64,000 nt of DNA from an uncultured Chloroflexia bacterium (lineage in GTDB: Bacteria > Chloroflexota > Anaerolineae > CG2-30-64-16): positions 1,152,001 to 1,216,000 of the forward strand of contig CAVZDU010000001.1 in assembly GCA_963774265.1 (NCBI GenBank), given 5' to 3'. The position numbers were made by a program, and so were the translations under genes. Every line of letters begins with the position of its first letter. Position 1 is the stretch's first letter. The notes under the pieces are model-generated. The model saw only the letters and a list, made by a program, of their open reading frames with translations. It was not told the origin of the DNA and searched no databases. Of this stretch, positions 1 to 64,000 are shown piece by piece.

Positions 1-782
<782 letters not shown>

Positions 783-880
783 CTCGGCGGCGAATCGCTG
801 TTCGAGAGGCGCAACGCGTTGGACCGCGCTGCGCCTCTCCATTTTGCCAAACCAGTCGTGGGCAAAACACCTGCTCCTTT

Positions 881-909
881 TTGCGCATGCTCCGTCAGTG
901 ACGTATAAT
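881..909 (+). promoter_or_regulatory. sigma70-type promoter of mreB
   Basis: TTGCGC-N17-TATAAT. Confidence 0.6.
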
Positions 910-1005
910 TTATCGAATCCCCTACAGGCGGGATTGCCTTAGCGCGTCGTATGTCTGTCCTGCAGTAATGTTGGAAATGGGGACCTCAGGTACGCAGGAG
1001 CCATC

Positions 1006-2028
1006 ATGTTCGAACGACAGTCGGCATTGACCTGGGCACGGTCAACGTGCTGGTATACGTCAGCGGCCGGGGCATCGTGCTGCGCGAGCCGTCGGTGGTT
1101 GCCATTTCGATCCGAGATAACAAGATCGTCGCGGTGGGGCAAGAGGCGCGCGACATGATCGGCCGCGCGCCGGAGAGCATCGAGGTAGCCCGGCCCATGC
1201 GCGATGGCGTGATCGCCGACTATGTGGTCACCGAGGCCATGCTGCGCTACTTCATCCGCAAGGTGGTCGGCCGCAACCCGCTGTTCAAGCCGCGGGTGAT
1301 GATCAGCATTCCCAAGGGCGTCACCAGCGTGGAGAGCCGCGCCGTGCACGACGCCGCGATGCAGGCCGGCGCCAAGGAAGCCTACCTGATCCCCGAGCCG
1401 TTGGCGGCTGCCTACGGCGCGGGTCTGCCCATCGGCACGCCGACCGGCAATATGGTGGTGGACCTCGGCGGCGGCACCACCGAGGCAGCCGTGGTCTCGA
1501 TGAACGACATCGTGGTGTGGAGCAGCGTGCGCGTGGGCGGCATCCGCACCGATGAGTCGATCATGACCTATGTGCGCAAGAAGTACAACCTGATCATCGG
1601 CGAGCAGACCGCCGAGGAGATCAAGATCACGATCGGCAGCGCCTTGCCCTTGCCTGAGGAACTGAGTATGGAGGTGCGCGGCCGCGACCAGGTCGCCGGC
1701 CTGCCGAAGACCATCATCCTGACCTCGGGCGAGATCACCGAGGCCATGGCCGAGCCGTTGGCCGCGATCATCGGGGTCGATCCGGCAGACACTGGAGAAG
1801 ACACCGCCTGAGCTGGCCGCCGATATCATCGACCGCGGCATGGTGCTGAGCGGCGGCGGCGCGCAATTGCGCAACATCGACCGACTGGTGACCAAGGAGA
1901 CGGGCGTACCGTCGTTCGTGGCCGAACACCCGATGGCCTGCGTGGCGCTGGGCGCTGGGCGGGCGCTGGAGAACTACGCTATCATGCGTCGCAGCTTGCC
2001 GGTTGCAGGCAGCAGTAACAACATCTAA
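1006..2028 (+). CDS. mreB: Rod shape-determining actin homolog MreB/Mbl (apparent indels near 1020 and 1780)
   Basis: [57 protein letters not shown]; AGGAG RBS before ATG 1006. Confidence 0.93.
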
Positions 2029-57889: not shown

Positions 57890-57958
57890 CCAGGTGGCGG
57901 TCGTGCGCAGGTCGGCGCACAATCACCACCTGGCGGCATTTTGTGGTTTAATGGGCCT

Positions 57959-59135
57959 ATGCAGCGCTTCTCTCGTCTCGACCGGTTATCGCTTGTCGCC
58001 TATCTCACCCTGGCCGGGGTGACTGCCGCCGGCTTGTGGGAGATCGACCGCATCCTGCTGCGCTGGCTCGCCCTGGGTCTCCTGGTGGGCTTTGGCCTGC
58101 TGCACAGCCGCCTGCCGGAGCAAGATGGCTCGCCGAGAAGCCAGCGCCTGGCCAACCTGATCATCGCCCTGCAGACCGGGCTGGTGGTCGTGCTGATCGA
58201 AACCACCCGGGCCGGTTTTCCATTCGTCCTCCTGTTCTTCATCCTGAGCGTGACGGTCATGCTCTACAACCCGCTGCGCCCGGGCCTGCTGTGGCTGGGA
58301 GGCTTCATCCTGCTCACCGGCTGGTTCTTCTTCGAGCAGGAAGGCCTGGGCGGCGGGCTGCGGGCGATGGCGATCTATGCGGGCGGTTTCCTGTTCTTCG
58401 GCGTCGTCACCAATGCGCTCACCCAGGCGCGCCTGACCCAACGCCAGAACGCCCTGCTGCTGGGCGAGCTGCAGGCCAAGAACCGCCAGCTCGAAGAATA
58501 CGCCGCGCAGGTTGAAACGCTGGCGGTCGTCGAAGAGCGCAACCGGCTGGCGCGGGAGATGCACGATACCATCGGCCACCGGCTGACGACCGCGGCCGTC
58601 CAACTGGAGGGGGCCCAGCGCCTGGCGCCCAGCGAGCCCGAGCGGGCCGCCGCGATGATCGGCGCCGGCCGCCAGCAGGTGCGCGAGGCGCTGCAAGACC
58701 TGCGCCAGACGGTCGGGCGGCTGCGCGAGCCGGTCGAAATCGAGCTTTCGCTGCCGCAGGCGCTGCACCGCCTGGCCGCCAGTTTCCAGGAAGCGACCGG
58801 CCTGGCGATCCACCTGGAGCTGCCCGAAAATGCCTGCGAGGTGACTTCCGCCCAGCGCCTGGCCCTCTACCGCACCGCGCAGGAGGGTCTGACCAACATC
58901 CAGCGCCATGCCGCCGCTCACCAGGCCTGGCTGCACCTGGAATGCTCGCCCGACCAGATTCGCCTGCAGGTGATCGATGATGGCCGCGGCCTTGACGGCC
59001 GGCAACCCCAGCACCGGCTTTGGCCTGCGCGGCCTGCAAGAGCGGGCGGCCCAGCTGGGCGGCGCAATCACGCTTTCAGACCGGCCGGGCGGCGGCACGA
59101 TCCTGACGATCCAGCTCCCCATTCAGGGAGGATAA
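57959..59135 (+). CDS. HisKA_3-type membrane sensor histidine kinase (apparent indel near 59000)
   Basis: EERNRLAREMHDTIGH, QEGLTNIQRHA, DDGRG, shifted-frame GFGLRGLQERA..TAA 59133-59135. Confidence 0.9.
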
Positions 59136-59803
59136 TGGCCATGGAACCTATCCGTATCTTGATCGTCGATGACCAGCGCCTGATGCGTGAAGGCTTGCGC
59201 ACGCTGCTGGAGCTGGAAGGCGACCTGGCGGTCGCGGCCGAGGCTGAGGATGGCCAGGCCGCCCTCGAGCAGTACGAAGCGATCCAGCCGGATGTCGTGC
59301 TGATGGACATTCGCATGCCCCGCCTGGATGGCGTGGAGGCCACGCGCCGCCTGCGCCAGCGCTGGCCCGAGGCGCGGGTGATCATCCTGACCACCTTCGA
59401 TGACGACGCGTACGTGTTCGATGGGCTGCGTGCCGGGGCGCTGGGCTACCTGCTCAAGGATGTCTCGGGCCAGGAGCTGGCCGAAGCCGTCCGCAAAGTC
59501 GCCGCGGGTGGGGCGCTGATCGAGCCTTCGGTGGCGCGCAAAGTGCTGGCCGAGTTCTCGCGCCTGGCTGAGCCCACCCGCCCGGCCCTCGACCGCCTCC
59601 CCGAGCCGCTGTCGGAACGCGAACAGGAGATTCTGCGCCTGCTGGCGTCGGGCGCCAACAACCGCCAGATCGCCAGCCAGCTCTTCCTGGCCGAAGGCAC
59701 GGTCAAGAACTACATCTCGACCATCCTGGACAAACTGGGAGTGCAAGACCGCACCCAGGCCGCCTTGCGCGCCCGCGAGCTTGGGCTGTTGAATCCCGGG
59801 TAA
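59135..59803 (+). CDS. NarL/LuxR family response regulator
   Basis: IVDDQ, LMDIRMP, LTTFDDD, YLLKD, LSEREQE, EGTVKNY. Confidence 0.95.
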   Translation: MAMEPIRILIVDDQRLMREGLRTLLELEGDLAVAAEAEDGQAALEQYEAIQPDVVLMDIRMPRLDGVEATRRLRQRWPEARVIILTTFDDDAYVFDGLRAGALGYLLKDVSGQELAEAVRKVAAGGALIEPSVARKVLAEFSRLAEPTRPALDRLPEPLSEREQEILRLLASGANNRQIASQLFLAEGTVKNYISTILDKLGVQDRTQAALRARELGLLNPG

Positions 59804-59838
59804 TCAGCCTGCGTTGACAGTCCCGTGGGGATTTGCAC

Positions 59839-61616
59839 TGTAGTGGGCAGAGAGGTTCGTCCGCTATGTAGGGTAGAGAGGTTCGACCGGGGGTGGTACT
59901 TCTTTCCACGGGCAGGTTCTGATCCAGGCGGCCTCGGTGGTGTAGATCGCCAGGCCTTCAGGAGTGGCGGCCACGCCGACGATTTGTCCTTTGTGGGCTC
60001 GCCCGACATAGTAGAAGCGTTTGTGAAAGGCAACCTGGCCCAGTTGCGTCACGCGGCGGGTCTGAAAGGGTGTGAAGGGGCGTGGCTGCGGCGGTGGGAG
60101 CTTGGCGGGTTGGGCGGTGGGCTGCGCTTGTGGGAAGAGGTGCTTGCAGGGCAGCGATTTGGTTGAGCCGTCGGGCAAAGTGACCTGCCAGCAATCGCCG
60201 ACACGCTCAAGGCACAGCTGTTGACCGATCCAGGCGATCCCGACGTAGTAGAGATAGCTGTTGAGGGCGATGTTGCCGCGTCGATTGACGATCCGTGTCA
60301 GCGATCGCGGGGACAGGGCGGGGAGAGGCAAGGCCGGGGATTGCTCGGCGGCCGGCTCCAGGTCGTAAGTGCGTTGCCAGCCGTCGCTCGCTTGGGCCAC
60401 CGCTGACCAGCCGCTCACGGTGACGGCGATGGTTTGCCGCGCATAACGCCGCTGGAAGGGGAACGTGCGCCCACACAGGCTGATCCGGCCATCGGCTTGG
60501 ACCTGGCGCGTCACCACGGTTGGCTCGAGCGTGATAGGCACCTGTGCGGGGTCGAAATCATCGGGCAAGCGCCGGGAACTCGGCTGATAGACGGTGACCG
60601 GCGGCTGATCCTGACACCGGCTATGACACCGTTCGTGGTTATAGAAGCCGCGGCTGGCCTCCATGGCCTGGGGCAAGTCAGCGCCGACCTCCGGCAAGGC
60701 GCCTTCTTCACGGCAGGTGCGGACGTAACGCTCGACCACGCCGTTCCACCAAGGCTGCTTGGGTCCCACCAGCAGATGATGGATGCCTAACGCGCTCAGC
60801 ACGCGGGTCAACAGGCTCGGCAGACCGCTGATGGCATCGAACCAGAGCTTGTCATGATCGGTCTTGACGATGGCCGGCAAGCCGTATTGGCGGGCGACCG
60901 CGAGAAAGCTCTCCACCACCAGCGCTTCGGTCAGTGTCGGCGCCGTGAGTTGCCCTAACGCGTAGCGGCTGTGCAAGTCGATCCAGTGCAACGTGTACCA
61001 GCGGGAACCGTCAGCAGGTTGACTGACCTGAATATCAGCCGCCCAGATCAAGTTGCAGCTCAGATAATCGATCTGCCGCGCCGCGGCCTTGGCCAGGGCA
61101 GCGAGCGCTGGCGCTTGCAGTTCCGGGTGGCGTGCCAGGACACACCGCACGCGGCCCTCACTGACCGAGGCGCGCCGCTGCACAGCATCGCGCATGCGCC
61201 AGCGGAGTTGTTTGGCGATCTGCCGTCGGCCCCACGCCGGATGTGCTTGCTTGAGGGTACAGATGGCCCGCTCGAGGTCCGCTGGCGTGCGTTGCGGGCT
61301 ACACTCAGGCCGTGAGGACGCATCCTGCAGGCTGCTAAGACCCTTTGCCTTATCATAACGTGCAAATGTCCGCCGCACCCACCGTGCCGGCCGCTGCAAC
61401 GTCTGCGCAATTTCCCGGCGATTGAGACCCTTCTGCTCAAGGTCAACGGCGGCGCATCGATCAGCATAATCGCGAGCTGGACAACGCGGCATGGCAGCAC
61501 CCCCTTTCCGCGTTGGGAGGTGCTGTACAGTCTAATCAGATTGTGACACCTTCAGCCATCCTGCGGTCGAACCTCTCTGCCCGGTACATAGCGGACGAAC
61601 CTCTCTGCCCACTACA
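59839..61616 (-). mobile_element. IS481-like insertion sequence (1778 bp) with 9-bp target duplication
   Basis: 32-bp perfect IR TGTAGTGGGCAGAGAGGTTCGTCCGCTATGTA plus a second internal AGAGAGGTTCG site at each end; DR GATTTGCAC at 59830-59838 and 61617-61625. Confidence 0.92.
59864..61492 (-). CDS. IS481-like DDE transposase with three tandem C-terminal beta-barrel-like repeats
   Basis: SSRP..SP.RT, HPAWG, WAADI, IDLHSR, KTDHD, PWWNGVVER, YNHERCH. Confidence 0.88.
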   Translation of the reverse strand: MPRCPARDYADRCAAVDLEQKGLNRREIAQTLQRPARWVRRTFARYDKAKGLSSLQDASSRPECSPQRTPADLERAICTLKQAHPAWGRRQIAKQLRWRMRDAVQRRASVSEGRVRCVLARHPELQAPALAALAKAAARQIDYLSCNLIWAADIQVSQPADGSRWYTLHWIDLHSRYALGQLTAPTLTEALVVESFLAVARQYGLPAIVKTDHDKLWFDAISGLPSLLTRVLSALGIHHLLVGPKQPWWNGVVERYVRTCREEGALPEVGADLPQAMEASRGFYNHERCHSRCQDQPPVTVYQPSSRRLPDDFDPAQVPITLEPTVVTRQVQADGRISLCGRTFPFQRRYARQTIAVTVSGWSAVAQASDGWQRTYDLEPAAEQSPALPLPALSPRSLTRIVNRRGNIALNSYLYYVGIAWIGQQLCLERVGDCWQVTLPDGSTKSLPCKHLFPQAQPTAQPAKLPPPQPRPFTPFQTRRVTQLGQVAFHKRFYYVGRAHKGQIVGVAATPEGLAIYTTEAAWIRTCPWKEVPPPVEPLYPT

Positions 61617-61626
61617 GATTTGCACT

Positions 61627-61655
61627 TTGTTGCACCATGCCGGCTGTGCTATACT
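61627..61655 (+). promoter_or_regulatory. Extended -10 promoter upstream of the candidate ncRNA
   Basis: TTGTTG-N17-TATACT with TG at -15/-14. Confidence 0.6.
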
Positions 61656-61753
61656 GCGCCCCCAGAAAGTGACATTGATCATCAGGATAAAGCCCCGCAC
61701 GATCGGACCGCCGTCGGGGCTGTGACCAGAGGGGCCGGGCCTTGGGCGCTCTA

Positions 61754-62873
61754 AGTAGGTAACAGAAAATTCGGGGCACTTCTTCGTTGCCTGATATACT
61801 GGGGTTACGGAGGGTGCCATGATCTATGTACGAACACCAACGGATGCTGAACTGCAAGAGCTCAAGCGAATGACCCGCCATGAGATCGGGCGGGTTAGCC
61901 AACGAGCGCAGATGGTTCTGCTCTCAGCGCAGCAGCGCACGGTGCCTGAGATCGCCGTCATCTTTGGCGTCAAGTACAAGACCGTGCGCAAATGGCTCCG
62001 CCGCTTCAATGCGGCCGGGCCGGCCGGACTGTATGATGAGCCGCGCAGTGGGCGGCCGCGGACGCTGACCGACCGTGTCCGTGACACTTTGGTCGACATG
62101 AGCGAGCAGGATCCCGAGCAGTCGGACTATCCCGCGACCTTGTGGACGGTTGCGATGCTGGCCTTAGCCTTGGCCGAGAAGATCGGCGTGTATCTGAGCC
62201 ATAGCACCCTGCGTCAGACGCTGCATGCGGCCGGCCTGGCCTGGAGCCGCCCACGACTCGCCATGCCCCGCAAGACTGATCCGCAGAAGGCGGCCAAGCA
62301 GTGGGCAATAGTGCAGGCCGTGATTGGGGCTGGCCCAGCTGCAGTCGTGCTGTACGCCGACGAATCGCGCATCCAGATGCTACCGTTGATTCGAGCAATG
62401 TGGCATCGGCTGGGCCAGCAGATCCGTGTCCCGACGCCCGGCAGCAATCAGACGCGCAGCCTATTTGGAGCGCTCAACATTCGCACGGGCCAGTGGACGT
62501 GGTTGATCCGCGAGCATATGCACAAAGAAGACTTCATCACTTTCCTGGAACACCTGTTGACGGTGTATGCCAGCGGTCCGATCATTCTGATCGTCGATAA
62601 CTACTCCAGCCATACGGCTAAGGCCATCGATGCCTGGCTGACTGAGCACCCGCGACTCCAGTTGCACTACCTGCCGAAGTACTGCTCGCATCTGAATCCG
62701 GTTGAGAACATCTGGCTGCGTCTCAAAGGCCAGACCGCCGCTGACCGCTTGTACGGTTCGCTGCATGGTCTGCTGGACGCCGTCACACGCTTCTTCGACC
62801 ATATGACGCCAGCGATGGCGTTGACCTGGGCCAGTCTCGACTGAAAAGTGACCCGTACTTTTTGTGACATACT
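61754..62873 (+). mobile_element. IS630-family insertion sequence, copy 2 (1120 bp)
   Basis: Same IRs as copy 1; TA duplicated at 61752-61753 and 62874-62875. Confidence 0.95.
61819..62844 (+). CDS. IS630-family transposase
   Basis: Protein identical to 2093-3118. Confidence 0.95.
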   Translation: MIYVRTPTDAELQELKRMTRHEIGRVSQRAQMVLLSAQQRTVPEIAVIFGVKYKTVRKWLRRFNAAGPAGLYDEPRSGRPRTLTDRVRDTLVDMSEQDPEQSDYPATLWTVAMLALALAEKIGVYLSHSTLRQTLHAAGLAWSRPRLAMPRKTDPQKAAKQWAIVQAVIGAGPAAVVLYADESRIQMLPLIRAMWHRLGQQIRVPTPGSNQTRSLFGALNIRTGQWTWLIREHMHKEDFITFLEHLLTVYASGPIILIVDNYSSHTAKAIDAWLTEHPRLQLHYLPKYCSHLNPVENIWLRLKGQTAADRLYGSLHGLLDAVTRFFDHMTPAMALTWASLD

Positions 62874-63073
62874 TAGTAAGACGATTGTGGCTCAGTTGTC
62901 TGCCCCAGGTCAAACCGAGGGCGGCCTTTGCATCTCTTGCAGATTGGCATCTTTCTGTTAGTCAAGAAGGCCGACACGTTGCTGCCTGATCGGCTTCATA
63001 TCTGAGTCCTGCTGGTCCGAGGAGCTGGGCGTTGCGGTCCTCAATGCATCACGTTTGTTCGGGACGTCAAGTG

Positions 63074-63112
63074 AGGCCGCAGCCTCTTTCTCTCTGGGGC
63101 CGCGGCCTTTTG
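63074..63112 (+). terminator. Intrinsic terminator
   Basis: AGGCCGCAGCCTC..GGGGCCGCGGCCT-TTTG. Confidence 0.7.
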
Positions 63113-63152
63113 TCTTCTCCTGAAATATGTACAGGCGAGGAGAGCCACCCTA

Positions 63153-63524
63153 ATGCCACGTACCCGCAAGACCACGCCGACCTACTCCGCGACATCAGTG
63201 GGCGCATCTCTCCCGGCCCTGACAAAGGAACTCTGGCAGGCGGCGGTCAACTTGCGCGGCTCCATCGAACCGGCCGATTACAAACGCTACGTCCTGCCGC
63301 TGATCTTCCTGCGCTTCCTCTCGTTACGCTACGAGCGTCGGCGGGGCGAGTTCGAGAAGCGTCTGCTGAGCGTGATCCAGGCGGAGGTGAAGTGCGAGAT
63401 CCCCGACTGGGCCGAGGGGCCGTTCCGGAACGGCGCCTACGATCCGGTGCTGGACGACGGGGTGAAGGTGAACATCACGCTGCTGCAAGAGGCGGGGGTG
63501 CTGAGGTATGGGAAGGTGGTGTGA
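63153..63524 (+). pseudogene. Chimeric remnant: type I RM HsdM N-terminus fused to a BREX PglX-like C-terminus
   Basis: LWQAAVNLRGSIEPADYKRYVLPLIFLRFLS (HsdM_N) joined to YDPVLDDGVKVNI..L (PglX-like terminal motif). Confidence 0.65.
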
Positions 63525-63526
63525 GG

Positions 63527-64000
63527 ATGTTCGAACCAAACTTTCAGCGCACTGACTTGCTCATCGATATGATCGCCCGGATCGAGGTGGCCCGGGACCG
63601 TATTCTGCGCGCGCCTGTTGTGCCCCGATGGGAGGCCGAGCTGCGCAGCGATGCCGTTGCTCGCAGCGCCCATCACTCGACCAGCATCGAAGGCAATCCC
63701 CTGTCGCTGCAGGAAGTTACCGACCTGTTGGCGGGTCGCGACATCCTGGCCCATCCGCGCGATCGCCAGGAAGTGCTCAATTATGCTGCGGTGTTGCGAT
63801 ACATCGATCGGAATTTCCTGGGCCAGGGTCGAGAGATTACCGAGGAGACAATCCGTCGCCTGCACGCACTCGTCGTCAAGGATGTCCTGCCGCCTCCAGA
63901 AGTTGGCCATTACCGCGGTGTGCCGGTGGTCGTAGGCGTGCCGGCAACGGGCGAAGTCGTCTTCCGGCCTCCCGGCTGGGAAGACGTTCCCGACCTGGTG
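63527..64000 (+). CDS. Fic family protein, N-terminal part (runs off window end)
   Basis: MFEPNFQ, HHSTSIEGNPL, QEVLNY, IRRLHALV, GHYR, FRPP; the HPFxxGNGR motif is not reached in the window. Confidence 0.85.
   Translation, partial: MFEPNFQRTDLLIDMIARIEVARDRILRAPVVPRWEAELRSDAVARSAHHSTSIEGNPLSLQEVTDLLAGRDILAHPRDRQEVLNYAAVLRYIDRNFLGQGREITEETIRRLHALVVKDVLPPPEVGHYRGVPVVVGVPATGEVVFRPPGWEDVPDLV

Follow-up and report, generated by a model that had tools for sequence, protein, structure and literature searches.

What kind of RNA lies among the insertion sequences and defence-gene remnants at the right end of a 64,000-nucleotide (nt) stretch of DNA from an uncultured Chloroflexia bacterium (Chloroflexota; Anaerolineae; CG2-30-64-16)? 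The stretch, hereafter the window, covers positions 1,152,001 to 1,216,000 of contig CAVZDU010000001.1 in assembly GCA_963774265.1. An initial annotation, made from the letters alone, proposed a single nested non-coding RNA (ncRNA) of about 260 nt, split by an IS630-family insertion sequence (IS), and considered that it might be an attenuating leader for the defence locus behind it. Our comparative analysis essentially favours the idea of an attenuating leader and moves it to another object, a 157-nt element at positions 62958–63114 that occurs in as many as 12 copies per genome. On balance, this element probably belongs to a family of cis-regulatory leader RNAs of the attenuation type, restricted to one lineage and not catalogued before, which heads anti-phage defence operons. 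Its parts in the window are the following.

62958–63114, plus strand: conserved 157-nt leader RNA, a full-length match to covariance model R1 (121.5 bits, E = 1e-31)
62967–62978 / 62986–62997, plus strand: hairpin P1, degenerate in this copy
63001–63004 / 63026–63029 with 63007–63011 / 63019–63023, plus strand: hairpin P2
63032–63044, plus strand: 5′ strand of the proposed antiterminator, pairing with 63071–63082
63075–63085 / 63097–63107, plus strand: terminator, followed by a T run at 63108–63111

A conserved 157-nt element ahead of defence genes

When the right half of the interrupted region was used as a BLAST query, matches were confined to query positions ~88–241 (window ~62963–63116) and came from 10 of 36 genomes of the same family, often several from each. 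All of them shared the same layout, with a defence-type gene downstream. From 17 aligned copies we built model R1 (156 positions, 32 pairs). At E ≤ 1e-5 it was positive in 20 of the 37 genomes of the family, which make up the whole order in the data searched, and the highest copy numbers were 12, 10 and 9 per genome. A sample of 150 other genomes of the class gave 3 positives, and the 150 genomes sampled from the phylum yielded one weak match. The window contains a single R1 copy. A diverged copy (33.8 bits) lies on a second contig of the same genome (locus L024, 1480–1730), where it has its own TATAAT box and precedes a type III mod methylase; the family of the leader is wider than R1 detects.

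The lineage restriction is also apparent in a pattern scan of named genomes, in which all R1-positive records were labelled Chloroflexota, Anaerolineae, Anaerolineales or Aggregatilineales, and the hits in other phyla were R1-negative chance matches. A pattern for P1 alone, run on metagenomes, recovered the element at 33 of 42 loci (82–152 bits, one cut by a contig end); since the remaining nine were coding sequence or ordinary terminators, this pattern on its own is unspecific. Phage-borne copies were looked for in viral contigs, which gave 0 matches for either of two patterns. The initial annotation had recognised no known RNA family, and at gathering score none of the 4227 families of Rfam 15 matched the whole window or 20 homologue loci. 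Lowering the threshold to E ≤ 10 for the window and two canonical copies produced only noise, with best scores of 12–22 bits against gathering scores of 35–100. A literature search returned no RNA leader common to defence systems and no such motif in Chloroflexota, and term look-ups in passages of the motif-discovery papers PMC11109978 and PMC8632094 turned up no such element, which their supplements could still list.

The structure of the element was assessed on alignment A5, which comprises 72 distinct sequences. P1 (12 base pairs, bp), P2 (4 + 5 bp) and the terminator (12 bp) are together 92.6% paired, versus 31–49% in slid controls; changes on both sides occur in 25 of the 33 pairs, and none of 500 shuffles reached the observed values. 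The terminator helix by itself is 93.1% paired, shows double changes in 9 of its 12 pairs and is followed by a T run; the intrinsic terminator proposed for the window (63075–63107 plus T run) is real and conserved across the family. It contains 114 G-U and 32 A-C cells, an excess that shows the RNA to be the plus strand. P1 and P2 have variable loops of ~7 nt, and neither hairpin overlaps the terminator. Some copies carry an additional hairpin of 20–55 nt within the core. A coding reading is disfavoured by the variable loops, by these extra core hairpins and by indels that are not multiples of three, and no credible open reading frame (ORF) was found in the region, as the initial annotation had stated. 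A leader peptide was considered and rejected: some copies hold an ATG-to-stop frame inside P1, and others have no start codon there.

The most conserved sequence of the element lies between P2 and the terminator, and the thermodynamic model leaves most of it unpaired. A helix closing the core (A5 columns 144–147 / 234–237) was discarded; by eye it seemed to covary, but its A-U (17) and G-C (16) cells are accompanied by 17 non-pairs and by register shifts, and the helix is broken in metagenome variants. A generic all-against-all covariation screen was likewise abandoned, swamped by one-sided C/U variation.

In a typical copy, a sigma-70-type promoter lies 8–9 nt ahead of the element. Among 75 distinct upstream flanks, 55 hold a −10 box with at least five of six matches to TATAAT, located 7–10 nt before model position 1 in 51 of these, and a TTGCnn −35 box stands 17 nt upstream of the hexamer. 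P1, at about +10 to +40, is a near-perfect palindrome, a 12-bp inverted repeat whose arms are 7 nt apart. Several of the copies without a proximal −10 box, a group that includes the window's, have an extended −10 box ~45–110 nt farther upstream; the window layout of distant promoter, variable 5′ leader and element matches that of these copies.

For each hit, the downstream gene was taken to be the longest ORF on the strand of the element with a start no more than 720 nt away. Such an ORF was present in 71 of 72 R1 loci (the remaining locus has no downstream DNA), mostly beginning 0–250 nt past the terminator and in many cases only 0–60 nt past the model end. A PADLOC defence model matched the first downstream gene (E ≤ 1e-8) at 47 of these 71 loci. 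The matches include type I, III and IIG restriction-modification (RM) genes and genes of bacteriophage exclusion (BREX) systems. The assignments are listed below.

hsdM-type methylase (type I): 8 loci
Druantia DruE-like helicase: 6 loci
BrxA: 5 loci
BrxC: 3 loci
HmaA: 3 loci
HKD+SNF2: 3 loci
type III/II methylase: 3 loci
WYL: 2 loci
DrmD/DrmA: 2 loci
HmaC/DUF499: 2 loci
SspB/DUF4007: 2 loci
HEC-01A ATPase: 2 loci
BrxF, type I restriction endonuclease, type IIG, DinG+DEDDh, SoFic (the window locus) and a weak type III restriction endonuclease: 1 locus each

Among the remaining loci, Pfam adds ResIII helicases, a NACHT protein, a Schlafen/AlbA_2 protein and an HTH protein. The metagenome set points the same way. 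Of the 32 R1 matches examined there, 3 have almost no downstream DNA and 2 were dropped for duplicate RNA rows and very short flanks; among the 27 ORFs scanned, 18 carry defence-typical Pfam domains (BrxA in 7) and none carries a clearly housekeeping domain. It was also observed that several PADLOC-negative loci, for example L112, L088, L114, L119, L121, L123 and L124, hold ORFs of 200–560 amino acids (aa) that belong to no Pfam or PADLOC family and stand behind intact leaders; these ORFs are candidates for undescribed defence genes.

Upstream neighbours vary, and include NACHT, ABC ATPase, GNAT, LacI and DJ-1 genes among others, in a survey made noisy by short spurious ORFs in GC-rich DNA and restricted for this reason to ORFs with Pfam matches. 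One arrangement recurs as a syntenic hotspot at at least five loci in several genomes, where a divergent gene of ~410 aa with an SH3 domain is followed by one subtype of the RNA and by cargo that differs between genomes. The loci concerned are L067, L088, L065, L078 and L062, together with L056, L053 and L101, which lack the Pfam match, and the cargo comprises SspB, a type III methylase, HmaA, BrxC, helicases and unknowns. Tandem units of RNA plus defence system are also found 2–5 kb apart on single contigs. At locus L051, two copies stand back to back (556–713 on the minus strand and 899–1071 on the plus strand, 185 nt apart) and face outward, the plus copy heading a WYL/WCX regulator gene.

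A proposed terminator/antiterminator switch and its competitors

An intrinsic terminator that stands between promoter and gene, on the strand of the gene, is expected of an attenuation leader, and the element has this arrangement. Like riboswitch expression platforms and the attenuators that depend on proteins or tRNA, it places a promoter, a structured 5′ domain and an intrinsic terminator before an operon. To look for a competing structure, 57 full-length sequences were cut before the 3′ arm of the terminator and folded, and the base-pair probabilities were mapped to A5 columns. The truncated folds share one consistent helix, between columns 145–158 and 243–257, with mean probabilities of 0.3–0.68. 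Its strands are nUYGCnGCCnUCAU, just after P2, and RUGAGGCCGCRG, which covers the bases leading up to the terminator 5′ arm and part of that arm. As in known terminator/antiterminator leaders, the conserved strand is predicted to pair alternatively with the arm. In the family as a whole, the helix is 92.1% paired, versus 27–44% for slid controls, a comparison biased by the fact that the helix was derived from the same sequences. It contains a 1-nt bulge and one mismatch, and its G-U cells outnumber its A-C cells by 112 to 32. This ratio, taken together with the 114 to 32 of the terminator, fits selection on the plus-strand RNA. Columns 147, 255 and 306 co-vary, in the combinations C-G-C (29), U-A-U (8) and U-G-C (7).

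When the two states were enforced, the terminator was the more stable in 77 of 82 sequences, by a mean of 9.8 kcal/mol. Of the 82 minimum-energy folds, 48 showed local sequestration of the antiterminator strand. The window copy is among the five exceptions: its states are isoenergetic (−58.4 versus −58.3 kcal/mol), because one substitution perfects the antiterminator and a mismatch weakens the terminator, and its unconstrained fold contains the antiterminator.

These features make the switch well motivated as a model. In the proposed mechanism, the conserved strand after P2 would pair with bases before and inside the terminator 5′ arm to form the antiterminator. Since the terminator state is usually favoured in the full-length RNA, the default would be OFF. 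Some signal, the existence of which we infer, or else co-transcriptional kinetics, would favour the antiterminator, and RNA polymerase would then read into the operon. With one leader before many unrelated systems in a genome, presumably acting in cis on each, such systems could be brought under common control. The window copy, having no promoter of its own, would be fed from the promoter ~180 nt upstream through the variable 5′ leader. The locus is decaying: P1 is degenerate, the terminator is weakened and an hsdM remnant lies behind it.

Beside the bias of the slid control, several observations weigh against this interpretation. Double changes in the antiterminator affect just 3 of 11 pairs and 11 cells, both strands being nearly invariant; the observed cell count was reached by 6 of 500 shuffles and the pair count by 113 of 500. 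The U-A-U class of the co-varying triplet belongs mostly to one subfamily, so it may reflect one or two events. P1 has no plus-strand wobble bias (G-U 28, A-C 43) and could equally be a DNA operator. Single-sequence folding is unremarkable, with z = −1.37 for the core of the window copy and z = −1.87 for the joined leader described below. The choice of downstream ORF was mechanical, so that same-strandedness arises partly by construction and is verified only where a domain was found. Finally, 24 of the 71 downstream ORFs have no PADLOC match, and four ORFs are of non-defence type (BNR/sortilin, FGE-sulfatase, peptidase M20 and a receiver-domain fragment); for three of the four, the RNA copy in front is decayed and has lost P1 or the terminator.

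The ambiguity of P1 leads directly to an alternative at the level of DNA, in which the element would be a cassette of promoter and palindromic operator (P1, perhaps also P2) for a dimeric repressor encoded elsewhere. The RNA folds would then be incidental, and the terminator would do no more than insulate or dampen; a cassette of this kind is compatible with attenuation. BrxR-type protein regulators bind inverted repeats ahead of defence operons, and the 12-bp repeat of P1 with its 7-nt spacer begins ~10 nt after the inferred transcription start; its sequence as well as its pairing is strongly conserved and, as noted, it shows no RNA-type wobble bias. A WYL regulator is moreover the first gene at two loci. 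On the other hand, the most conserved stretch of the element is the core with the antiterminator strand, which is not palindromic, and the complementarity of that strand to the terminator arm carries the plus-strand bias of 112 to 32. Most loci have no linked regulator gene. A WYL protein as master regulator was examined and rejected: a single protein query matched 7 of 37 family genomes, including 2 that have no copy of the RNA, and it matched neither the genomes with 9–10 copies nor most of the other carriers. We therefore regard the DNA cassette as unlikely.

An independent, trans-acting small RNA (sRNA) of ~155 nt, bounded by a promoter and a terminator of its own and serving as a regulator, an antitoxin-like partner or a decoy, is judged about as improbable as the cassette. 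Read-through would in that case be incidental, and this reading too is compatible with attenuation. The strong promoter in 55 of 75 flanks and the dominance of the terminator state in 77 of 82 sequences would yield a discrete small transcript, whose core is highly conserved and apparently single-stranded. An sRNA of this kind does not explain why the element and the operon always share a strand, with the element directly upstream and usually no visible gap for a second promoter. Up to 12 near-identical copies per genome would also be odd for a trans-acting RNA, and the conserved complementarity to the terminator arm would have no role. It is very unlikely that the 157-nt repeat is instead a recombination handle or hotspot border, providing homology for cassette swapping or an attachment site: the SH3-gene site with the same RNA subtype before differing cargo, the tandem units 2–5 kb apart and the divergent pair at L051 suit this idea, but no integrase or recombinase is linked, copies occur only at the 5′ ends of operons, viral contigs matched neither pattern, and a patch of homology needs no promoter, terminator or covarying hairpins.

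The cis-acting attenuation leader, which remains the preferred reading, can be set beside known regulatory devices. It differs from known terminator/antiterminator leaders in heading defence rather than metabolic operons, with up to 12 copies per genome before unrelated systems, and in matching none of the Rfam families. T-box leaders combine a specifier loop with an antiterminator whose UGGN bulge pairs with the 3′ end of tRNA; the element has no Rfam T-box match, its antiterminator bulge measures 1 nt and both of its hairpin loops are variable. ANTAR targets are a tandem pair of hairpins, each with a conserved hexaloop, and the second hairpin overlaps the terminator, whereas the loops of the element are ~7 nt long and unconserved and its hairpins lie clear of the terminator. 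A functional parallel is offered by the BrxR/CapW-type WYL regulators and the C proteins of RM systems, which are proteins acting on DNA operators. The likeness lies in a shared modular device that heads many defence systems and presumably holds them low until needed. The element differs in being non-coding, with a switch that would operate at the level of RNA. Judged from the single WYL query, it also generally lacks the linked or co-occurring WYL regulator expected of an operator under BrxR/WYL control, a WYL gene following it at just 2 of 71 loci.

How costly or self-toxic defence systems are held at rest in bacteria and later induced is, to our knowledge, mostly an open question, and the shared defence regulators known to us are proteins (WYL/BrxR/CapW and C proteins). 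This modular leader probably places many unrelated defence operons under common, attenuation-based control. A single RNA leader before BREX, type I/III/IIG RM, DISARM-like (defence island system associated with restriction-modification), Hma, Druantia-like, Ssp and further operons of one genome would be the RNA-level counterpart of those protein regulators. A bolder version is possible but doubtful: the element could be a sensor RNA, the core of which binds a small molecule or a host or phage protein, or reads infection-altered elongation, and flips the antiterminator to switch on a dozen unrelated defence operons at once. If so, these operons would constitute an RNA-controlled “immune regulon”, and the element would be a signpost that makes the 24 PADLOC-negative downstream genes strong candidates for undescribed defence systems. 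As one short element with one predicted switch, it offers a testable handle, and it can be used as a cis-marker for new defence genes in a poorly studied phylum, which makes it relevant to the fields of phage defence and RNA regulation alike.

The interrupted 5′ leader and the window locus

The region upstream of the element in the window is built from two insertion sequences and the two halves of a variable leader, and remnants of a defence locus follow.

59838–61617, minus strand: rve-type IS with a 542-aa integrase/transposase (rve, rve_3 and HTH domains)
61618–61753, plus strand: left part of the variable 5′ leader (“L module”), which aligns with the paralog L003
61754–62873, plus strand: IS630-family IS with a 341-aa ORF (DDE_3 and HTH domains)
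62876–62957, plus strand: right part of the variable 5′ leader, supported by alignment with L003 and the minimum-energy fold of the joined leader
63153–63524, plus strand: remnant gene, 123-aa ORF (Pfam HsdM_N, 8e-13, profile positions 1–47)
63528–64000, plus strand: start of a Fic-domain gene that extends past the window end (Pfam Fic, 1e-19; PADLOC SoFic, 7e-54; assigned via L023, the window locus)

The two flanks of the IS630 element were joined in silico (61618–61753 plus 62876–62960) and compared with L003, a paralog on the minus strand of a second contig of the same genome that lacks the insertion. The alignment runs from end to end, with 146 of 203 columns identical (72%), and is unbroken across the insertion point. 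Together with the TA duplication at 61752–3 and 62874–5, this continuity upholds two claims of the initial annotation, namely that excision of IS630 restores CTAG and that the flanks were once a single sequence. With 61618–61753 as the query, no homologue was found in 60 related genomes, and L003 is its sole paralog in the window's own genome. The L module contains a −35-like TTGCAC, the extended −10 box TGnTATACT (61647–61655), the hairpin at 61691–61721, and one side of each of two helices, GACC/GGTC and GGGGC/GCCCC; these are the 5′ strands, and the 3′ strands lie in 62876–62957. The extended −10 promoter had also been called correctly: the box in L003, TGTGCTATACT, is identical to that of the window.

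At its 3′ end, the L003 leader closes with a strong terminator-like hairpin, of which 62876–62957 carries a decayed version, and a defence-type gene combining PLD and SNF2 follows ~60 nt on. The 157-nt element is wholly missing from L003. Judged from these alignments, the real leader split by IS630 is the variable 5′ leader and not the conserved 157-nt RNA, so the picture of a hidden ncRNA interrupted by the insertion holds for the former and fails for the latter. As for the L003 locus itself (2–1353, minus strand), its PLD-plus-SNF2 gene lies in two overlapping frames (694–1353 and 2–754) and forms one ORF in relatives; the split may be a frameshift or an assembly error.

The single, nested, independently folded ncRNA of ~260 nt is by now hardly credible and can be considered largely refuted, even though the excision from which it starts is correct and the rejoined 5′ leader has an intact paralog. 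Because L003 is continuous and carries a compensatory change, the joined leader is supported as a real unit and two of the proposed helices gain support, within the bounds of a single comparison. The hairpin AGCCCCG/CGGGGCT keeps its stem in L003, where its loop is longer and different. The helix TGACC+GGGGC / GCCCC+GGTCA retains its outer GACC/GGTC there, and CAAGG/CCTTG stands in place of the inner GGGGC/GCCCC, a compensatory exchange that rests on two sequences only. Helices H4 and H5 are present in the minimum-energy fold: TGACC+GGGGC / GCCCC+GGTCA forms in that of the window and not in that of L003, and the hairpin AGACGATTG/CAGTTGTCT, also part of the window fold, is unrecognisable in L003.

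Three of the six proposed helices fare worse. The closing helix (61669–78 / 63041–52), ATCAGG/CCTGAT and CGGCCTT/AAGGCCG are all missing from the minimum-energy fold and have no partner in L003. The 3′ strands of all three lie inside the 157-nt element, in which the same bases form part of hairpin P1 or of the conserved core. Such long-range helices would destroy the hairpins of the element, and the nested fold therefore fails. Most family members, in addition, have only ~10 nt before P1, and the left half of the supposed RNA is confined to its own genome when compared with the 60 relatives. On the yardstick that the initial annotation had itself proposed, namely folding energy against shuffled controls, the joined 338 nt give −141.0 kcal/mol versus −130.0 ± 5.9 for 100 dinucleotide shuffles, the z of −1.87 already cited, which lends the RNA claim no support. 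What had been taken for one molecule is a variable 5′ leader followed by a separate, intact 157-nt element that was not recognised as a unit; the observation was thus partly confirmed and its interpretation partly supported.

The interrupting element is ordinary for the IS630 family, with a DDE_3 transposase, N-terminal HTH domains, the TA duplication and short terminal inverted repeats that match imperfectly; its presence is incidental to the RNA. The rve-type IS ends in perfect terminal inverted repeats of 33 nt (59838–59870 / 61585–61617), and it ends at 61617, immediately before the leader promoter region. A subterminal motif of 19–26 nt is doubled at each of its ends (61563–88 and 61591–616; 59845–63 and 59871–89), and these motifs are probably transposase binding sites. 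Downstream of the element, the ORF at 63153–63524 retains just positions 1–47 of the 135-position HsdM N-terminal domain and appears as a chimera or remnant, in which this fragment is fused to unrelated C-terminal residues. Farther upstream, a single 620-aa ORF (57941–59803) spans an apparent sensor histidine kinase and then a LuxR-type response regulator, and may represent a fusion, a frameshift or overlapping genes.

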